Positions 5,309 through 37,064 of a DNA stretch of 64,000 nucleotides are shown one piece after another. Made by a program: the position numbers and the translations under genes. A model generated the notes under the pieces. It saw only the letters and a program-made list of their open reading frames with translations, was not told where the DNA came from and did not search any database. The stretch's first letter is position 1. Every line of letters starts with the position of its first letter. The stretch comes from Minisyncoccota bacterium (GTDB lineage: Bacteria > Patescibacteriota > Minisyncoccia > Phycocordibacterales > UBA1006). The DNA lies in the NCBI GenBank assembly GCA_022763365.1, contig JALEGN010000016.1:5556-69555 (forward strand), read 5' to 3'.

Positions 5309-5905
5309 CTAACGTTCTAGTATTTCCTTAATTGACTCATGAATAGATTCAACCGCTCCTTCTCCATCAATATCGTACACCTTGTATTGTTCTTTCTCTC
5401 TTAGGAGTTCAAGTGATGGGAGAACTTTTTCATTGTAAAAAGTAATTCTATTTTCAACAGCCTCCATATCAATATCATCCGTTCGGCCACGTTCTGCCAT
5501 ACGTCTCCTGACCTCAGCTTCTGAAACTTCAATATGTAGAACCACGACATCGTGTGCTCGATTATAATAATCTAAGGCTCGATCAAGGGTGTCTACTTGA
5601 TGTAGGGTTCGCGGGTAACCATCGAGAATAAGAACCTGTTCTGGATCATCAAGATTTTGAACCAAATCACCAACCAATAACCAATCAGTTAGAAAATCTG
5701 GTACCAATTGACCTTTTTTTAAAATTTCGCGCAAGCGATCTGAAGTATAACCATCACCTTTGACCATTTGCCTGAAGAGATGTCCTGATTCAAAATGATA
5801 GACTTCTTTATCTACTGAAATAAGTTGTTTTTTAAGTAATTCAATCTGGGTTCCTTTACCAGATCCTGATCGTCCCATGACGATAATCGTTTTTGGTGCG
5901 TTCAT
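5309..5905 (-). CDS. adk: Adenylate kinase (short, LID-less form)
   Basis: P-loop GRSGSGKGTQ and the ILDGYPRTLHQ motif. 198 aa. Confidence 0.8.
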   Translation of the reverse strand: MNAPKTIIVMGRSGSGKGTQIELLKKQLISVDKEVYHFESGHLFRQMVKGDGYTSDRLREILKKGQLVPDFLTDWLLVGDLVQNLDDPEQVLILDGYPRTLHQVDTLDRALDYYNRAHDVVVLHIEVSEAEVRRRMAERGRTDDIDMEAVENRITFYNEKVLPSLELLREKEQYKVYDIDGEGAVESIHESIKEILER

Positions 5906-28664: not shown

Positions 28665-30605
28665 TTATTGGACTACCCGACCATCAGCTCCTACCGCTCG
28701 TCTATTTTCTAAGCGATTAAAGAGTGGTGTTTTTCGGAAATTTAATTCAGTTTCTGTGAAGGTATCTTCACCACTTAAAATAATATCTCCAGTCAAAGCA
28801 AAATCTTCATCAAGTTGTGTAATCGATGGGGTCACACGAATTTGGAGCGATACTTGCCTCGGTTGACTCGTTCCAACTCCTAGACCAGAACGCAGGTCAC
28901 CTAATCGCCACACCAATTCTCGTGTCGTATTATCAAATGAAACATTCGTACGCTCTACTGATGGTGCTATAACATTGAGCCATTCAACATAGGGTGGCAG
29001 GAAGGTTGAAAGTTCAGCTCCACTTACCGCATTTGAAGAATTGGTAATTTCAAAGACCATGGTATAAGTTGTCGTTTCGTTTACCTTTGGTGGCATTGGT
29101 CCTTGGTTCCTGAATGGACCTTCGTAATAAAGTGTTTTTGGAATAACTGAAATGTCAGAATTCGCAAGAACACGATGGCGTGCTACAGCAAAAGCTTCTT
29201 CTTTTTGACCATTGCTGGCAGTTCCTTCGACATCAACAGTAATTTCTGCAAAAGGGTTACTGAGGACACCACTAGCGCCAACAAGTTCTTTCCCTCCAAT
29301 CGTAAACCTGAAATCTCCTTCTTCTCCTGGTTCGAGTAATGCTAATCGTTCATTTGTTGTTTGATCAAAAACAATAGTTTGATTACTTGAATTATAGAAC
29401 CCGTTTTGTAGATTCACCTGACTTGGATCATATAAGTCACCATCAAGATTTACTGTGAGTACAACATTTCTTAAATCAGTTTCTAAGGTATTCTTGTAAT
29501 TAATTCGAATATCTAAATCATCACCTCCGCGAATACTACTTTGGTCTGAAGCATCACTATTAACCACAATCGATGATTCAATAAATGATTTTTGTACATC
29601 AATAGTATGGATAATTGAATTAAATACGGTTTCAAATTCATTTTTATTAAATTGATTTTGTTTACCATACTCAAAATTAAATGATTGACCCTGACCTTCT
29701 AAGGCTGCAAGGCGACCAATAATTTCAATACTTTGAACATCATCACCAATATTATCAAAATACCAAGTATTATTATTAAAGTTTGGTAAGAGACTTGAGC
29801 TCACATATTCAAATCCTCGTGGGTAATCAATTTTTAACAGCGTATCGTTAATCTGTTGGTTAGAGTTTGATGAAACATCTACACGTAAGGCAACATCTTG
29901 ATTACGGACAATCGTATCAGGAGCGATCACTGAAATTTGCGTTGGTGTTGATCGAATAATAACCTGATGAGTTCCTTGTTTTACGAAAATAGAACTTGAA
30001 CCTTCGATACGATACTCTAGAGTTGCTTCAATTTCCCTAATATCTCCTTCTTGACCAAAAAGTGTAGCGTCAAATTCTTCCGTCACACGTCCCTGAGGAT
30101 CAATATCCTGGAGTGACCGGCGTAAGAAAACCCTCTCTGCATCAACACCAGAATCTTTAGGATAGGAAATAACAAGGTCTGGCAATTGTAAGGCTTGTTC
30201 GTTAAAATTTTGAACACGGACTTGTAACTCGAGCTCTTCTCCACCATCAACAAATGGTTGACCTAAAATCTCAAGAGCAATTAATTCTTCTGATACGGTT
30301 GTTTGCCCTTCATATAAAGTAACTCCTGCAACCGCAAGGGTCGCAAAGAAAAAGATAAGCACCGCAAAGAATATTTTTTTAAATAGTGACGTTGGAAGAT
30401 TATATTTACTTCGCTCTTTTAAAAGACGTTCATACTCATCATCAGTAAAATCTTTTTCAAGTTCAATCTTTCGATCATGTATTTTACGTCGGTCACGTTG
30501 TCCATGATCTTTATTTGGGTCATAAAGATCACGCTCAAGTTTCTCAATACGTTCATCTGGTTTTTTAGGAGTAATATCGTCTTTCATACTTCTAGTATAA
30601 AACAA
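28665..30605 (-). CDS. Large membrane-anchored extracytoplasmic hypothetical protein
   Basis: 646-aa protein: a charged N-terminus, a single TM (FFAVLIFFFATLAVAGV), then a long beta-rich ectodomain. Confidence 0.4.
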   Translation of the reverse strand: MFYTRSMKDDITPKKPDERIEKLERDLYDPNKDHGQRDRRKIHDRKIELEKDFTDDEYERLLKERSKYNLPTSLFKKIFFAVLIFFFATLAVAGVTLYEGQTTVSEELIALEILGQPFVDGGEELELQVRVQNFNEQALQLPDLVISYPKDSGVDAERVFLRRSLQDIDPQGRVTEEFDATLFGQEGDIREIEATLEYRIEGSSSIFVKQGTHQVIIRSTPTQISVIAPDTIVRNQDVALRVDVSSNSNQQINDTLLKIDYPRGFEYVSSSLLPNFNNNTWYFDNIGDDVQSIEIIGRLAALEGQGQSFNFEYGKQNQFNKNEFETVFNSIIHTIDVQKSFIESSIVVNSDASDQSSIRGGDDLDIRINYKNTLETDLRNVVLTVNLDGDLYDPSQVNLQNGFYNSSNQTIVFDQTTNERLALLEPGEEGDFRFTIGGKELVGASGVLSNPFAEITVDVEGTASNGQKEEAFAVARHRVLANSDISVIPKTLYYEGPFRNQGPMPPKVNETTTYTMVFEITNSSNAVSGAELSTFLPPYVEWLNVIAPSVERTNVSFDNTTRELVWRLGDLRSGLGVGTSQPRQVSLQIRVTPSITQLDEDFALTGDIILSGEDTFTETELNFRKTPLFNRLENRRAVGADGRVVQ

Positions 30606-30629: not shown

Positions 30630-31205
30630 TTAGAGTTGTGTATCGCTCAGGCGTTGGTTAATTTTTGCAATAAGCTTTTTCTTATTTTTTGTAATAAACA
30701 TAAAAAAAACATTATTAAAATATTCTATAGATTCAAGAAATGGTTCATTTCCTTCCCAATATCCTAAACTAGATAAAATACGAATCGTAAAAATAATTTC
30801 AATGAACTCAGTATTGTTTTCAGTGATTTGATCATAGTGATCAAAAAGATATTCAATATTTTGCCAAATTTCTTCATGAGGTTCTTCACCACTACAGAGG
30901 CGATTAATGAGCGAGCTAAATTTAGCGAGGATACTAAACCAATGGCTTTCAGTAAATGACAATGAGGAAGTATTTTCATGAATACCTGTAACTCGCCAAA
31001 TATCTCTACCCTGAACAAGATCAACGGTTACCAATGAATAGAGATTCGTATGAAATCTCATTTTTGATTTTAATTCACGTACTGATTGTAACGAGCAATA
31101 GATTAAACCAAATTTTTGAGTATATAGAACAATCAATTTATTTGATTCACGCATATTTTTAGTTTTTAAAATTACCGCATCAGTTTGATAAATAGCGTGT
31201 GACAT
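30630..31205 (-). CDS. recO: DNA repair protein RecO (probable)
   Basis: N-terminal OB pattern AIVLKTKNMRESNKLIVLYTQKFGLIYCSLQSVRELKSK. Confidence 0.5.
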   Translation of the reverse strand: MSHAIYQTDAVILKTKNMRESNKLIVLYTQKFGLIYCSLQSVRELKSKMRFHTNLYSLVTVDLVQGRDIWRVTGIHENTSSLSFTESHWFSILAKFSSLINRLCSGEEPHEEIWQNIEYLFDHYDQITENNTEFIEIIFTIRILSSLGYWEGNEPFLESIEYFNNVFFMFITKNKKKLIAKINQRLSDTQL

Positions 31206-31633: not shown

Positions 31634-31664
31634 ACAAAAGCGACCTTTCGGTCGCCTTTTTTAT
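31634..31664. terminator. Bidirectional terminator
   Basis: gcgacc-tttc-ggtcgc flanked by an A4 run and a T6 run. Confidence 0.5.
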
Positions 31665-34600
31665 TTTTCTATAACTATAACAAATACTAAATCTTCAATA
31701 GTGATTTCTTCTCCTTCAATTTCTGTAAAATTAAATTCTTTAATTCCTGCGGTAGATTTAATTTCATCACTAAATGTTTTAACCAATGACTGACCTTCAG
31801 GTGAAGTTTGAACAATCAAATTAATTTCATCTTGTGGTTCAAGCCCTGATTTTTTACGTAGTGACTGAATTTGCCTGAGTAATTCACGCATATTCCCTTC
31901 AGCCTGTAATTCATCAGTAATAGTCGTATCAAGAGCAAGTTCTCCATCAATTAATTCTTTCACATTTAATTCATCGGTAATAAGTGTGTGACATGATTCA
32001 TCAATATCAGTTAGTGAAGCAGTAAATGATTGAAGTGGTTGTCGAACCTTGATTTTCGCTTCGGATCGTAATTGCAGTCCTTCAGAAATAAGATCACGTA
32101 CTAATTGCATCATCGTTATGATTTTCTCATTAACTTCTTTAGATTCAGGCCAAGCAGATAGATGAACAGATTCTTTCATATCATTAGTTCTGATGGCTTG
32201 CCAAATTTCTTCAGCGATGAATGGTGTAAATGGTGCGATAATTTTGGCTGTTTCAAGGAGCACGTATTGTGTCGTCCCCAATGCATATTTCTTATCTAGA
32301 GCATCATCACCTTTGTATCGATCTCGTGAACGACGTACATACCAAGTTGAGAAATCATCAACAAAATCAAAGATTGGACGTGCCGCTCGATCAAGTTCGT
32401 ATTTCTCAAGTCCATTGCGAACTTCATTTTCAAGTTCGGCAAGTCGTGCAACAATCCACTGATCAAGAATATTTTCTGAATCAACTTGTGGTCCGTGCTC
32501 TACTTCACCTTTATACATCTCATAAAGCGACAAGATATTTCGGAGTCGCCCCATCACCTTTGATGAAACCTCACGAACACCTTTTTCAGAGAAAGCAAAT
32601 TCCTCTGCACGTACGACCGGCGAATTAATCATATACAATCGAATTGCATCGGCTCCGACTGAGTCAAACATATCGTATGGATCAGGGTAATTCTTGAGAG
32701 ATTTTGACATCTTTTTACCATCTTCTGCCAAAATCAGACCATTCACAATGACATTTTCAAATGGTGTTTTGTCAAAAAGAGCATTTCCAATAACGGTCAT
32801 TACATAAAACCATCCACGTGTCTGATCAAGCCCTTCAGCAATAAATTGTGCCGGGAAAGCATTTTCAAATGATTCTTTGTTTTCAAATGGATAGTGTTGC
32901 TGAGCGTACGGCATTGATGCTGAATCAAACCAAACATCAAAAACATCAGGAATACGTTTAAGTTCAGATTCTCCATCCTCTGACACAATTACCACCTCAT
33001 CAATATAAGGACGGTGAATATCAATGACATAATCTGGACCATGTGGGAATGGTTTGAAATTAAATGGCAGAACTTTGGCATTTTTAGGCAGTCGATATTC
33101 ATCCCAAAAAGCATGAGCCATTTCTGGGCGTCCGTATTTATGATTTCCAAATTCCATTGCTCGAAGAATTCCACCATGAGATACAATCAAAATCTTTTTA
33201 TTGTGATACTTTTCTTCAAGTTCAAAAAGGAACTCCATTGAACGTTTATAAACATCATTAATTGACTCAGCATCATCAGAAAGTTTTAGATCAATGAAAT
33301 CTTCATTACTAGCAAAATATTCTTGATTATGAGCATCTTCCCATTTTTTTCCTTCCCACTCTGAACCAAGGTTTGTTTCGGTCAATCGCTGGTCAGTAAT
33401 ACATTGATCATCTGAAAGACCTAAGTGTTCTTTAATAATCTGTGCTGTTTCTTGGGTCCTCTGAATTGGTGATACAAAGATATAATCAAGATCTTTTGGA
33501 ATATCTTCGATAGAATCAATGACTTGTTGTCGTCCTTTTTCAGTCAATGGGTTTTCAGTACCAATATATGAATTAATAATTCCTTTAATATTTGATTCTG
33601 ACTCTCCATGACGCAATCCAAAATATTGGTTACCTGAGGTTTTAATACGAGAGAGCATTTCTTCGTATGAACCAGCAACAAAAGTTTCTTCACCGTCTTG
33701 TGACTGCCAAACCGGAAGTGGTGTTCCCCAGAATCGCGATCGAGATAATGCCCAATCACGCGCTCCTTCAAGCCATTTTCCAAATCGTCCTTCTCCAACA
33801 TGATCTGGTACCCAATGAACCTTGTTATTTGATTCAATCAGTTGATCTTTAATTTGTGGGACATCTACATACCACGAGGTCGTTGCGTAATTCAACAATG
33901 GTGTATCACAACGCCAACAATGTGGATAGCTGTGAACGAGCTTTTTCTTTGAGAAAAGTTTCCCATCGTGCGCGAGCCGTTTAATGATTTCAATATCAGT
34001 CGACATCAAATCATTTTTTTGTTTCACCAGCATTCCTGCAAAATCTCCTCCATCAATGGTTTCTGCAAAAACGTGTTTAAAAGCTCCTGATTTTGCTACA
34101 TGCTGAATGAATGGTAAGGCCTTATCTTTACCAAGTTGCATATCATCAGACCCAAAAGCTGGCGCAATATGCACAATACCTGTTCCATCTTCGGTGGTAA
34201 CAAAATCAGCAACTTGAACCTTCCATCCATTTTCTGAATTTTCTACTTCAGGATCATTTTGGTAGTAATCAAAAGGTGCGATATATGATTTCCCTTCGAG
34301 CTCTTTTCCTTTTATTTCTTCAAGGATTTCATATTCCTTTCCTTCAAATACTTTTTCAAGGAGCTCTTTTCCTACGATAAATTTCTCTCCCTCTGATGAA
34401 ACTTTTACATAATCAATATCAGCCCCTACTGCTAACGCTACGTTTCCTGGTAGTGTCCATGGCGTTGTTGTCCATGCCAACATAAAGGTTCCTGGTTCGT
34501 CAGTTAATTCAAATTTTGCCGTTACTGAAATATCAGTGACGTCTTTGTATCCTTGATTTACCTCAAAGTTTGCCAGCGTCGTTTCGCATCGTGGACACAG

Positions 34601-35140
34601 GTGCATAGCCTTAAACCCTTCTTTGGTCAGGCCTTTTTTATGCAGCTGTCCAAATACCCACCAAATTGATTCCATGTATGACGGATTCATTGCCATGTAG
34701 GCATTACCCATATCAACAAATCGTCCTGAACGTGGGACATATCGCTTCCATTCTGATTCATAGCGTAATACCGAATTACGTGCAGCATCATTAAATTTAT
34801 CAACACCGTATTCTTCGATATCTTTTTTTGTTTCTAGACCAAGTTCTTTTTCAATGAGGTTTTCAATGGGTAAACCATGACAATCCCATCCCCATTTTCG
34901 TGGAACGCGGTACCCCTGCATCGTTTTATAACGTGGAATAATATCTTTGATTGTTCCTGCAAGGAGATGCCCATAATGCGGTAATCCTGTTGCAAATGGA
35001 GGCCCATCGTAAAAGACAAAATCGCCGTTTGATGATTCTTTTTCTAAAGATTTTTCAAAGATTTTGTTTTCCTGCCAGAACGACAGAATTGATTCTTCTG
35101 ATTGAGCTGTTTTCGACTTTTTATTTTCGTTTTGATTCAT
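31661..35140 (-). CDS. ileS: Isoleucyl-tRNA synthetase (type 2, eukaryote-like) with an inserted histidine-phosphatase (PGAM-family) domain
   Basis: HYGH and KMSKS class I motifs, a CP1 editing domain, and …DVWFDSASMPYAQQHYPFEN…. Roughly 200 extra residues (~aa 505-705) carry RHGESESN and LIVSHGGILR, inserted between WGTPLPVW…SYEEMLSRIKTSG and DIHRPYIDEV. Confidence 0.9.
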   Translation of the reverse strand: MNQNENKKSKTAQSEESILSFWQENKIFEKSLEKESSNGDFVFYDGPPFATGLPHYGHLLAGTIKDIIPRYKTMQGYRVPRKWGWDCHGLPIENLIEKELGLETKKDIEEYGVDKFNDAARNSVLRYESEWKRYVPRSGRFVDMGNAYMAMNPSYMESIWWVFGQLHKKGLTKEGFKAMHLCPRCETTLANFEVNQGYKDVTDISVTAKFELTDEPGTFMLAWTTTPWTLPGNVALAVGADIDYVKVSSEGEKFIVGKELLEKVFEGKEYEILEEIKGKELEGKSYIAPFDYYQNDPEVENSENGWKVQVADFVTTEDGTGIVHIAPAFGSDDMQLGKDKALPFIQHVAKSGAFKHVFAETIDGGDFAGMLVKQKNDLMSTDIEIIKRLAHDGKLFSKKKLVHSYPHCWRCDTPLLNYATTSWYVDVPQIKDQLIESNNKVHWVPDHVGEGRFGKWLEGARDWALSRSRFWGTPLPVWQSQDGEETFVAGSYEEMLSRIKTSGNQYFGLRHGESESNIKGIINSYIGTENPLTEKGRQQVIDSIEDIPKDLDYIFVSPIQRTQETAQIIKEHLGLSDDQCITDQRLTETNLGSEWEGKKWEDAHNQEYFASNEDFIDLKLSDDAESINDVYKRSMEFLFELEEKYHNKKILIVSHGGILRAMEFGNHKYGRPEMAHAFWDEYRLPKNAKVLPFNFKPFPHGPDYVIDIHRPYIDEVVIVSEDGESELKRIPDVFDVWFDSASMPYAQQHYPFENKESFENAFPAQFIAEGLDQTRGWFYVMTVIGNALFDKTPFENVIVNGLILAEDGKKMSKSLKNYPDPYDMFDSVGADAIRLYMINSPVVRAEEFAFSEKGVREVSSKVMGRLRNILSLYEMYKGEVEHGPQVDSENILDQWIVARLAELENEVRNGLEKYELDRAARPIFDFVDDFSTWYVRRSRDRYKGDDALDKKYALGTTQYVLLETAKIIAPFTPFIAEEIWQAIRTNDMKESVHLSAWPESKEVNEKIITMMQLVRDLISEGLQLRSEAKIKVRQPLQSFTASLTDIDESCHTLITDELNVKELIDGELALDTTITDELQAEGNMRELLRQIQSLRKKSGLEPQDEINLIVQTSPEGQSLVKTFSDEIKSTAGIKEFNFTEIEGEEITIEDLVFVIVIEK

Positions 35141-35309: not shown

Positions 35310-35336
35310 ATAAAAAACAACTTCAAAAGTTGTTTA
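35310..35336 (-). terminator. Terminator overlapping the argS stop
   Basis: aacaactt-caa-aagttgtt followed by a T-run. Confidence 0.45.
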
Positions 35337-37064
35337 CATTTCTTCTGGTGCTGAGATGCCTAAAATCCACAATCCATTTTTAATTACCTGTGCCGTTGCA
35401 TCAGTTAAGGCTAATTTATAACCACTCGCCTGATTATCAGCATCAACAATTTTAGTATTCCCATACCAAGAATTAAATAATTGTGCGAGTTCGGTAATAT
35501 ACGTAACCACGTGATGTGGTGCGAGGTCTTTAAAAGCTTGTTCAACCACAATTGGATATCGATATAAATAACGTTCAATATCAGTTGTTTCCCAATCCTC
35601 TGGACGATTAGCTGAGACCTCAATTCCCTGCTCTTGTGCCTTACGTAACATTGATTGAGAGCGCGCATAGGTATATTGCAAATACGGACCTGAATCTCCT
35701 TCAAATGATAAAGAGGTATCTGGATCAAAATTAATATTTTTCCCTGCTTGAGTTCGCAATACCGCGTATTTCACCGCAGCGATTGAGATCATATCAGCTT
35801 GGTCTTGTGATAATTCTCGATCACCTGCCCTGACATATACTTCTTCATTTACGGCATCTAAAATATCAGAAACAATTGGAGTATTTCCAAGACGTGAGGA
35901 CATTTTTTGCCCCTTGAACTGCATACGTCCGTGGGTTTTATGAATGGTTTTTTCTTGCCATTCTTTATGTACCTTACCTGCTGCTGTTTCTACAACCTCA
36001 AAATATGGACCTTGTTCGGAGTCAGTGATAAATATCGAAAGCTCTGGATTATAACGATCAAATTTTAATTTTAGTAATCCGGTATCTTTTGCCTCATAGG
36101 TTGGATTACCATCTTTATTAATGAACACACGTGTATGCAGTGATTTGTTCTTTTCTAAATCTTTTTCATTTGGTTCAAATATAATGGCTCCGTTCGATTC
36201 GGTATAAACTGACGGTGTGTGTTTGGTAATAATTTCTTTTCCTATTTTTCCTGCTTCTGATTCAAAAATAAACCCGTCAAATGCCGAACCAAGACGTGCT
36301 GTCATCTGGATAAAATATTCAAGGTTTAAATCTCGTCCTATTTTATAAGCTTGATGGGCTTCGGTATCTCGATGCTCGTAAATATCTTGAGTTATTTCTC
36401 GAACACGTGGTTCGATATTTTCATTATCTTTAAAAGCCTGGGTTCCCTCTGCGTAACATTTTCCAAGAAACGCCATTTTTTCAGATACCGTTTTAAACTC
36501 ATTAATTTTTTCGATTCCGTATTGTAGAAACTGCCAAACCGCCTTTCCAATTCCAAGGGATACATCAGAAGGATATGAAATCATGGTTACCTCAGCACTG
36601 GTTGTCCTGCACAATCGAGTCATTGCCTCACCAACCGTATTGTTCATCATGTGCCCAATATGAAATGGTTTAAACAAATTTGGAGATGAATGCTCAACAA
36701 GTATTCTTTTACCTTCCCAAGAATCATTCCATCCATAAAAATCACCTTTTTCTTGAATTACTTTCAACTCATATGAGAAAAATTCATCTATAAGTTTGAT
36801 GTTTATAAATCCTGGACCTGCGACTTCTACTGATGAAATCTCTGGCGCGGTGATTTTTTCTGATAAAGCCTCAGCAAGTTCTCGTGGATTTTTCCCTTCC
36901 TTTTTAGCCAAAACCATAGCAATATTCGTTGCAAAATCGCCATGTGACAATTCACGTGGATGTTCAATAGTAATATCTCCATCATAAGAAATATCCAATT
37001 CGACAAGAGCTGATTGAATAGATTTTTTGATTATGTCTGTAATCATCATAAACTTATTGTACAT
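35334..37064 (-). CDS. argS: Arginyl-tRNA synthetase
   Basis: HIGH-type PFHIGHMMN, a C-terminal DALR anticodon-binding domain, and QKMSSRLGN. Confidence 0.85.
   Translation of the reverse strand: MYNKFMMITDIIKKSIQSALVELDISYDGDITIEHPRELSHGDFATNIAMVLAKKEGKNPRELAEALSEKITAPEISSVEVAGPGFINIKLIDEFFSYELKVIQEKGDFYGWNDSWEGKRILVEHSSPNLFKPFHIGHMMNNTVGEAMTRLCRTTSAEVTMISYPSDVSLGIGKAVWQFLQYGIEKINEFKTVSEKMAFLGKCYAEGTQAFKDNENIEPRVREITQDIYEHRDTEAHQAYKIGRDLNLEYFIQMTARLGSAFDGFIFESEAGKIGKEIITKHTPSVYTESNGAIIFEPNEKDLEKNKSLHTRVFINKDGNPTYEAKDTGLLKLKFDRYNPELSIFITDSEQGPYFEVVETAAGKVHKEWQEKTIHKTHGRMQFKGQKMSSRLGNTPIVSDILDAVNEEVYVRAGDRELSQDQADMISIAAVKYAVLRTQAGKNINFDPDTSLSFEGDSGPYLQYTYARSQSMLRKAQEQGIEVSANRPEDWETTDIERYLYRYPIVVEQAFKDLAPHHVVTYITELAQLFNSWYGNTKIVDADNQASGYKLALTDATAQVIKNGLWILGISAPEEM

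Follow-up and report, generated by a model that had tools for sequence, protein, structure and literature searches.

The 64,000-nucleotide stretch of DNA analysed here (positions 5,556 to 69,555 of contig JALEGN010000016.1 from a Minisyncoccota bacterium; hereafter the window) carries an ileS gene whose 1159 amino acid product is a type-2 isoleucyl-tRNA synthetase (IleRS) with a second enzyme embedded in it. The additional domain, inserted into the third connective peptide (CP3) of the synthetase, is on its predicted structure a phosphatase-type member of the histidine phosphatase superfamily, with the fold of the small PhoE/phosphoserine phosphatase/CobC-like phosphomonoesterases. At the level of gene and domain organisation, members of this phosphatase family are repeatedly and specifically associated with ileS, and we consider it reasonably likely that the window domain is a catalytically competent phosphatase, built into CP3, that works together with the synthetase. 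Window coordinates given below refer to the 64-kb stretch, with all features described lying on the minus strand.

A histidine phosphatase domain within IleRS

The inserted branch 1 histidine phosphatase occupies residues 503–706 of IleRS (~204 amino acids; 33023..33634), in good agreement with the span of 33020–33640 reported in a first-pass annotation of this DNA. The Pfam His_Phos_1 model (PF00300), suggested there as a check, matches residues 509–662 (33155..33616) of the whole protein with an E value of 1.1e-30 and 107.2 bits against a cutoff of 21.7, and the excised insert alone with an E value of 7.6e-32 (111 bits). Motif searching located both of the catalytic signatures on which the annotation had relied: LRHGESESN, containing the RHG motif with R510, the nucleophile H511, G512 and N517 (residues 509–517; 33590..33616), and ILIVSHGGILRA, containing the SHG motif with the second catalytic histidine, H655 (residues 650–661; 33158..33193). 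Between these lie SPIQRTQETA (33443..33472), which includes the phosphate-binding R561, and TETNLGSEWEG (33350..33382), which includes the predicted proton donor E588. Conservation, in addition to motif searching, supports the assignment of all four elements.

In 117 full-length relatives, R510, H511, R561, E588 and H655 are conserved in every sequence, G512 in 99% and N517 in 97%. Across 286 inserted copies, taken from all lineages and insertion sites, the nucleophile histidine is found in all 286, R510, R561 and H655 in 285 each and E588 in 281, and the set of six catalytic residues is complete in 119 of 119 standalone relatives. The domain as a whole evolves faster than the synthetase core (mean column conservation of 0.50 compared with 0.70–0.82 in the 117 relatives) and outside the catalytic residues falls to ~30% identity between groups. 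That the catalytic residues have stayed near-invariant whilst the rest of the domain drifts argues for selection on catalysis rather than on a scaffold, and the insert is very probably, as far as its sequence allows prediction, an active phosphatase.

An AlphaFold2 (AF2) model of the insert alone (predicted local distance difference test score, pLDDT, 95.8; predicted template modelling score, pTM, 0.91) matches 4ij6, 6m1x, 1h2e and 6s2q in Foldseek with probability 1.00 and template modelling (TM) scores of 0.72–0.76, at 22–27% sequence identity. The nearest folds are the Hydrogenobacter and Entamoeba phosphoserine phosphatases, PhoE, mycobacterial hydrolases, CobC and TIGAR, with glucosyl-3-phosphoglycerate phosphatase and a riboflavin-pathway phosphatase also among the neighbours. 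The score above the PF00300 threshold, the catalytic residue set and the alpha/beta fold together place the domain in branch 1 of the superfamily. PhoE (1H2E/1EBB), 4IJ5/4IJ6, 6M1X, CobC (6NRU, 6E4B) and ‘mycobacterial hydrolase 1’ (6S2Q) share its fold, its length of ~200 amino acids and its catalytic residues but are free-standing proteins, whereas the window domain is tethered at both ends inside another enzyme. The description of the insert as a member of the phosphoglycerate mutase family was correct in so far as this is a name for the superfamily, but it did not hold for enzymatic identity: the scores for cofactor-dependent phosphoglycerate mutase fall well short (NF038349, 72–77 bits against 225; TIGR01258, 27 bits against 81.7) and true mutase structures rank below the small phosphatases in the fold search. 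Other curated families were likewise rejected, namely the alpha-ribazole phosphatase CobC (TIGR03162, 78.6–83.1 bits against 162.9), the phosphohistidine phosphatase SixA (TIGR00249, 25.1 bits against 74.5), the phosphoserine phosphatase PspA (NF045917, 54–59 bits against 350) and phosphoserine phosphatase 1 (NF009994, 42–46 bits against 277), although phosphoserine phosphatases are the best structural neighbours. With generic fold neighbours and no equivalog cutoff reached, the substrate specificity of the domain cannot be read from its sequence.

CP3 has been delimited as residues 459–526 in the yeast enzyme and 473–534 in that of Candida (PMC7191050, PMC7955072). In the window protein it is preceded by the CP2–CP3 linker ARDWALSRSRFWG (residues 460–472; 33725..33763), which is homologous to yeast 453-ARDWNVSRNRYWG-465, a segment that lines the pocket for reveromycin and the tRNA CCA end (PMC7955072). 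The insertion begins ~30 residues after this linker, between CP3 helices, and divides CP3 into an N-terminal part (residues 473–502; 33635..33724), placed by the published limits and by alignment with insert-free sister proteins, and a C-terminal part beginning DIHRPYIDEV (residues 707–734; 32939..33022), placed by the same alignment, in which D707 and H709 are invariant in relatives (sets of 117 and 72). The first-pass annotation had proposed that ~200 extra residues separate WGTPLPVW...KTSG from DIHRPYID, and alignment with type-2 enzymes bears this out. Residues 495–704 correspond to residues 488–496 of the yeast IleRS chain (8wnd), which puts ~200 residues in the place of a short loop (~8 residues in yeast), and in the type-2 ileS genes of Microbacterium and other Actinomycetota a region of 287 query residues spans 270–288 nt rather than ~855 nt. 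None of the solved IleRSs has anything inserted in CP3. As also proposed, the ileS open reading frame (ORF; 31661..35140) runs through the insert in frame and without a stop codon.

The CP3 of Thermus thermophilus IleRS contains a zinc knuckle (PMC7191050). In insert-free patescibacterial sister IleRSs (52–55% core identity), CxxC ... CxC cysteines flank the exact point of insertion, and alignment with three such proteins reveals that these cysteines have been lost from the insert-bearing enzymes. In the window protein QSQDG replaces the first pair, where the sisters have CDKCKK, and VSEDG replaces the second. From these alignments, the phosphatase, tethered at its two ends, seems to have taken over the place of the zinc knuckle.

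A chimeric contig or fused gene call could also give rise to a protein of this kind, and nothing was found in its support beyond the slightly lower G+C fraction of the insert (0.343, compared with 0.386 for the rest of ileS and a window average of 0.355). All 120 of the nearest protein clusters (52–100% identity, 1132–1246 amino acids), from NCBI, JGI, ENA and Logan assemblies and with names including Paceibacteria, Parcubacteria, Nomura-, Kaiser- and Zambryskibacteria, carry PF00300, and over 250 distinct proteins in all, drawn from these four sources and encoded on contigs of up to 1.6 Mb, share the architecture. The nearest candidate phyla radiation (CPR) sequences, a search of which the first-pass annotation had suggested, all contain the insert. 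Its identity climbs with that of the core (0.36, 0.39, 0.52, 0.64 and 0.79 across ascending core-identity bins; Spearman 0.50), showing that the domain has been inherited together with the gene, and 228 of 267 proteins share their insertion architecture with the protein closest to them in core sequence. On these comparisons the phosphatase domain is vertically inherited with IleRS, and the possibility of an artefact is so slight that we treat it as ruled out. Absence of an HMM (hidden Markov model) match, an alignment making these residues a normal part of type-2 IleRS and a chimeric assembly, any of which would have spoken against the first-pass proposal, were all looked for and none was found.

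The taxonomic extent given here rests on the names of the source records, some of which are surprising. One insert-bearing IleRS, 81% identical to the window protein and located on a 16.7-kb contig (P0006/L001), is labelled ‘Crocinitomicaceae bacterium’ and others (L003–L007) ‘uncultured Candidatus Saccharibacteria’; these labels are probably binning or naming artefacts. A scan of contigs for the DVFDVWFD-type IleRS pattern, dominated by generic matches, returned at least seven insert-bearing loci. At NCBI the window protein and its insert-bearing relatives are annotated only as ‘class I tRNA ligase family protein’, a name that hides the phosphatase part from database users.

Recurrence of the phosphatase beside and within IleRS

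An exhaustive phmmer search with the insert yielded 7647 relatives, 552 of them below 1e-10. Among the best 150, 85 have IleRS sequence adjoining the domain (at one end or at both), 59 stand alone with at most 300 amino acids and six are longer than 300 amino acids but consist of phosphatase only, most of them being tandem doubles; no host protein other than IleRS occurs in this set. The closest standalone relatives, named ‘histidine phosphatase family’ or ‘PhoE’, are patescibacterial (including Staskawiczbacteria), 188–198 amino acids long and up to 43–45% identical to the window insert, and standalone proteins score 170–188 bits against an HMM built from inserts alone.

These standalone phosphatases (P0164, P0376, P0329 and others) belong to the same subfamily as the insert and share its gene neighbourhood, but are encoded by separate genes beside an IleRS that has no insert and that, in the three cases aligned, retains the CP3 cysteine motifs. 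In six of six lineages examined, the stretch from argS to an insert-free ileS (818–982 codons) contains the phosphatase gene, 1–4 nt from ileS in L081 and L083–85, 24 nt from it in L092 and overlapping it by 7 nt in L090. The genes around it are ordered as they are in the window, where the gap between argS and ileS marks the site taken by the phosphatase gene in the sister lineages. Each of the 16 loci scanned has exactly one member of the family, located within IleRS or immediately upstream, and a scan of the 64-kb window found no second His_Phos gene. The inserted domain appears, from these sequence and gene-order comparisons, to descend from the neighbouring standalone gene family, to which the group of inserts at the window's own insertion site (site A below) is marginally the closest (32.9%). 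Literature searches found no published function for the standalone argS–ileS phosphatases.

The argS–phosphatase–ileS block contains or adjoins other genes in some lineages. In L086 (8652–9819) an RHH/ParE-type toxin–antitoxin pair and an HD_3 phosphohydrolase gene lie between the standalone phosphatase and ileS, and in L091 (5570–6160) a CYTH triphosphatase-family gene does so. RVT_1 reverse-transcriptase genes are located near the block in L090 (9716–10567) and L091 (1890–2663), with bAvd also present in L090; RVT_1 and bAvd are typical components of diversity-generating retroelements. A standalone Y1_Tnp gene is found two genes upstream of argS in L083–L085.

Insertion sites were mapped across the relatives by excising the phosphatase envelopes and then aligning the cores, an approach that replaced an earlier classifier that was noisy near site A. 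Four hot spots emerged (in window numbering): site A at ~499, with 163 domains, site A' at 715–724 (23 domains), site B at 745–774 (~24) and site C at 875–899 (67). Sites A', B and C are where His_Phos is located in IleRSs of the Gracilibacteria/Peregrinibacteria type. Some proteins contain more than one copy: two His_Phos domains per IleRS were verified with Pfam in P0137, P0148, P0155, P0160 and P0204, and three-site architectures were also mapped. Every copy in the two-domain proteins keeps the catalytic set, and these proteins are backed by several independent contigs of up to 1.06 Mb. Among the relatives of P0148, which are named Gracilibacteria, Peregrinibacteria and Peribacteria, all but ~15 of the 120 listed carry PF00300. 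Copies at the same site are 36–44% identical, compared with 28–33% between sites or within one protein, indicating that the multi-site states are old and largely independent.

IleRSs with two or three intact His_Phos_1 domains reach 1380–1570 amino acids (P0137, P0148, P0155, P0160, P0204, P0401 and others, including that encoded at L089 8001–12260) and display B+C, A+C or A'+B+C layouts, or tandem copies at A. P0124 (1161 amino acids, from a ~4-kb contig) combines four His_Phos stretches with an incomplete IleRS and may, from its sequence, be a fragment or a degenerate paralogue.

One lineage has a different phosphatase. P0457 (1504 amino acids) lacks His_Phos but contains two HAD_2 phosphatase domains with DxDG intact (DFDGV at 570 and DNDGV at 772), which look like a non-homologous replacement of the His_Phos activity. 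Site B can also host GNAT, DUF559, serine hydrolase or HAD domains, site C an AAA_33/Zeta-like kinase and CP1 a DUF559 or IS200-like Y1_Tnp domain. The GNAT, serine hydrolase and AAA_33/Zeta-toxin-like kinase inserts (P0408, P0410, P0437, P0477, P0465, P0467, P0447, P0473) are found in Gracilibacteria/Peregrinibacteria IleRSs, mostly together with His_Phos_1, and the mobile-element-like Y1_Tnp and DUF559/restriction endonuclease-like domains lie in frame within IleRS in P0205, P0473, P0479, P0409, P0422 and P0423. In the Patescibacteria radiation, in-frame insertions may be especially frequent in IleRS. Two neighbouring genes in this part of the radiation can be added here: in L093 a Ser_hydrolase gene adjoins an insert-free ileS, a second case of a neighbouring gene matching an inserted domain, and in L094 (9109–9585) a YbaK/ProX-type tRNA_edit deacylase gene directly follows the stop codon that ends an insert-free ileS of the Gracilibacteria type.

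Possible function and competing explanations

The first-pass annotation had suggested that a phosphatase activity is coupled to the synthetase, an idea that gains comparative support here. We judge functional coupling between phosphatase and IleRS to be likely on genomic grounds, since the phosphatase gene neighbours ileS in all six lineages, the domain has entered IleRS at four sites, IleRS is its sole multidomain host among the best 150 relatives and HAD domains are found in P0457, which lacks it. By analogy with characterised family members, H511 would attack the terminal phosphate of the substrate to form a phospho-histidine, with R510, R561 and H655 holding the phosphate, N517 in support and E588 protonating the leaving group. 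The two enzymes may act as one unit, with the phosphatase taking a terminal phosphate off some molecule that hampers Ile-tRNA(Ile) synthesis.

Judging from this context, the substrate would be a phosphomonoester or terminal phosphoanhydride on something bound or made by IleRS, and our best guess is a phosphorylated adenosine species, whether a nucleotide or a tRNA 3' end. Candidates include a nucleotide product or analogue at the synthetic site (AMP-like or 3'-phosphorylated), pyrophosphate (PPi) or triphosphate (PPPi), and phosphorylated A76, but any one substrate that might be named has at best a small chance of being the right one. A nucleotide-like small molecule is favoured because the fold neighbours act on small molecules, HD_3 and CYTH genes are found by ileS in sister lineages and P0457 has HAD domains. 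A phosphorylated tRNA 3' end stays a candidate because the linker that lines the CCA pocket is close to the insertion point and because kinase and phosphatase domains are combined in some relatives.

Several observations weigh against a working partnership of phosphatase and synthetase and fit instead with a passenger, that is, an active, ordinary housekeeping phosphatase of these reduced genomes that has come to lie in a surface loop tolerant of insertions, in the product of an essential gene with high expression, and has no mechanistic link to aminoacylation. CP3 is surface-exposed and structurally plastic (its topology varies among the solved IleRSs and it provides an exposed docking surface in human IARS1), and a permissive loop could explain why the insertion is tolerated. 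The loops of related IleRSs also host unrelated domains (DUF559, Y1_Tnp, GNAT, kinase, serine hydrolase), some of them of the mobile-element type, so that insertion alone is no proof of coupling. The structural neighbours of the domain are generic metabolic, small-molecule phosphatases, no curated equivalog family claims it and it evolves faster than the core. No standalone phosphatase gene lies within 6 kb of the insert-free Gracilibacteria-type ileS at either of two loci, and there is as yet no explanation of why IleRS alone among the synthetases should need a phosphatase. A random passenger would not, however, be expected to return repeatedly to one host protein. Phosphatase-only doubles aside, IleRS is the only multidomain host among the best 150 relatives; four insertion sites and a conserved ileS neighbour in six of six lineages point the same way, as does the presence of a non-homologous HAD phosphatase in the lineage without His_Phos. 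We regard the passenger as unlikely, though it is the main competing explanation. A non-catalytic module that merely scaffolds CP3 in place of the lost zinc knuckle would account for the disappearance of CxxC...CxC from insert-bearing IleRSs and its retention at the same spot in insert-free sisters, but six catalytic residues that are near-invariant in 286 copies of a domain otherwise at ~30% identity are not what such a module would require; we reject a decayed or structural domain, giving it hardly any chance.

Two further explanations accept catalysis but assign it a particular purpose. The domain could be a built-in repair or anti-toxin device that makes tRNA(Ile) fit for charging by clearing its A76 of a phosphate (at the 3' or 2' position, or 2',3'-cyclic) or of a pyrophosphate added by a toxin. 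Its location in CP3, a short way past the linker that forms part of the CCA pocket in the yeast enzyme, is in keeping with this, as are the toxin–antitoxin pair that separates phosphatase gene and ileS in L086 and the presence of a P-loop AAA_33/Zeta-like kinase alongside the phosphatase in some distantly related IleRSs, such as P0473, a pairing that recalls the polynucleotide kinase-phosphatase enzymes of end healing. On the other side, the structural neighbours are small-molecule rather than RNA-end phosphatases, there is no evident RNA-binding extension and the domain occurs in one synthetase only; Pfam finds no kinase domain in the window IleRS and no ligase is present among the annotated neighbouring genes. 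End healing is, on balance, improbable. More improbable still is that IleRS is a self-defending drug target whose carried enzymes inactivate IleRS-directed natural inhibitors or toxins at their site of action. Related IleRSs contain domains (His_Phos, HAD, GNAT, AAA_33/Zeta kinase and Ser_hydrolase) from superfamilies that include antibiotic-modifying enzymes, but this is argument by analogy: the window IleRS has the phosphatase only, its neighbouring genes offer no resistance context and none of the well-known inhibitors of IleRS is, to our knowledge, a phosphomonoester.

The more ambitious form of the coupling proposal is that IleRS and phosphatase constitute an obligate two-enzyme system, one that reveals an unrecognised phosphorylated species in patescibacterial tRNA(Ile) charging. 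One possibility is that a 3'-phosphorylated or pyrophosphorylated tRNA(Ile) end is healed before charging, another that a phosphorylated nucleotide or inhibitor is cleared at the synthetic site. We put this forward as a speculative idea with the odds against it. More generally, patescibacterial IleRS may serve as a base onto which a set of helper enzymes acting on its substrates (phosphatase, HAD, kinase, GNAT, esterase) is brought together.

The synthetase, its genomic setting and wider significance

The first-pass annotation considered the remainder of the protein to be a normal type-2 IleRS, and it has the features expected of one. It scores 887.6 bits against TIGR00392 (cutoff 621.4) in a match that is interrupted by the insert, and besides the phosphatase Pfam recognises tRNA-synt_1, Anticodon_1 and DUF5915. 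The HIGH signature is present as HYGH at residues 55–58 (34967..34978) and KMSKS at residues 810–814 (32699..32713), with H55, G57, K810 and K813 invariant in 72 relatives. The CP1 editing domain (~residues 197–407; 33920..34552) is matched by the isolated IleRS editing-domain structure 1wk8 over residues 197–407; its motifs WTTTPWT and GTGIVHIAPAFG are both present and are conserved in relatives, so that the domain is apparently intact. The anticodon-binding domain follows at residues 893–1037 (32030..32464; PF08264, E=3.6e-34) and the C-terminal DUF5915 domain of type-2 enzymes at residues 1065–1159 (31664..31948; PF19302, E=3e-17). A full-length AF2 model (pLDDT 90.6, pTM 0.81, with insert blocks at 90–97) has the type-2 IleRSs 8c8u, 8c9d and 8wnd as its best fold matches, IleRS2 8c8v also being matched. 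The protein is, by these sequence characters, a complete type-2 housekeeping IleRS of a Paceibacteria-type (Patescibacteria/CPR) bacterium. It falls far below the cutoff of 1900 bits for the mupirocin-resistance enzymes MupA and MupB (708 and 758 bits against NF000257 and NF000258), its likeness to which is, on these scores, general type-2 similarity only.

The predicted role in tRNA(Ile) aminoacylation is consistent with the neighbouring housekeeping genes. Directly upstream, beyond a 193-nt gap, lies argS (ArgRS; 35334..37064), and on the other side a recO-like gene (30630..31205), both identified in a Pfam scan and by synteny with sister loci as part of a conserved block with the order argS, (phosphatase), ileS, recO, large protein, class II aminoacyl-tRNA synthetase (aaRS) and M16 peptidase. 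The block in the window also includes a 646 amino acid ORF (28665–30605) with no Pfam match; its syntenic counterparts are 553–610 amino acids long with only faint CLIPPER/DUF7619 matches, making its product a conserved protein of unknown function. Further away (61144–63852) the window encodes a 902 amino acid sensor histidine kinase with CHASE, PAS, HisKA and HATPase_c domains, an elaborate protein for what otherwise looks like a reduced genome. In an Rfam scan of the 64-kb window no family reached its gathering score, and no tRNA, rRNA or riboswitch was detected.

The whole synthetase architecture (a Rossmann fold with HIGH and KMSKS, the CP core, CP1, CP2, CP3, the anticodon-binding domain and DUF5915) is shared with Priestia megaterium IleRS2 (8C8U/8C9D), T. 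thermophilus IleRS (1ILE) and the yeast enzyme (8WND); phmmer comparisons with solved IleRSs give E values of 1e-205 to 1e-223 and Foldseek gives target-normalised TM scores of 0.77–0.85. Precedents for the addition of a further enzyme are few. CP1 itself, a hydrolytic insert in the Rossmann fold of IleRS, ValRS and LeuRS that acts on what the synthetic site has made, sets the architectural precedent for adding another catalytic insert to IleRS, but CP1 is universal in IleRS, has an unrelated fold and hydrolyses aminoacyl esters, whereas the phosphatase insert is lineage-restricted and belongs to phosphoryl-transfer chemistry. The curated family NF040702 (‘isoleucine--tRNA ligase, N-acetyltransferase domain-containing’) provides a case of IleRS with an extra enzymatic domain, but this is a distant IleRS lineage with a different domain; the window IleRS, which has no GNAT domain, scores 320 bits against a cutoff of 1999. 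The same family was rejected as a home for the GNAT-bearing patescibacterial IleRSs (245–269 bits). The bifunctional RNase H/acid phosphatase (NF005567, PRK07238) joins a nucleic-acid enzyme to a CobC-like branch 1 phosphatase, the half of the protein that the insert matches, but is an end-to-end fusion with another partner enzyme, and the insert scores 63–66 bits against a cutoff of 326.

Full-text literature searches found no description of an IleRS–histidine phosphatase architecture (one paper on IleRS and Parcubacteria and one on CPR aaRSs proved unrelated to the insert), nor does any NCBI curated family cover it. The automatic JGI name of one relative, ‘isoleucyl-tRNA synthetase/phosphohistidine phosphatase SixA/...GNAT’, is an automatic label only. 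As far as can be told, the architecture has been visible in databases yet unanalysed, and whilst both component families are well known, the same does not hold for the way they are combined, for how widely this combination is distributed or for its having arisen repeatedly.

Aminoacyl-tRNA synthetases are among the best-studied of enzymes and, editing domains apart, extra catalytic domains are rare in those of bacteria. Here the catalytic part of an essential synthetase houses a second, apparently active enzyme that has kept its catalytic residues near-unchanged through deep divergence across a large part of the Patescibacteria, and the pairing recurs as a neighbouring gene, at four insertion sites and possibly by way of an unrelated phosphatase fold. 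Repeated association of this kind usually marks a real functional dependency, and we know of none between IleRS and a phosphatase. The substrate, once identified, could reveal a new quality-control step for tRNA or nucleotides, a defence against IleRS-directed toxins or inhibitors, or the means by which energy-poor, PPi-rich cells drive aminoacylation.

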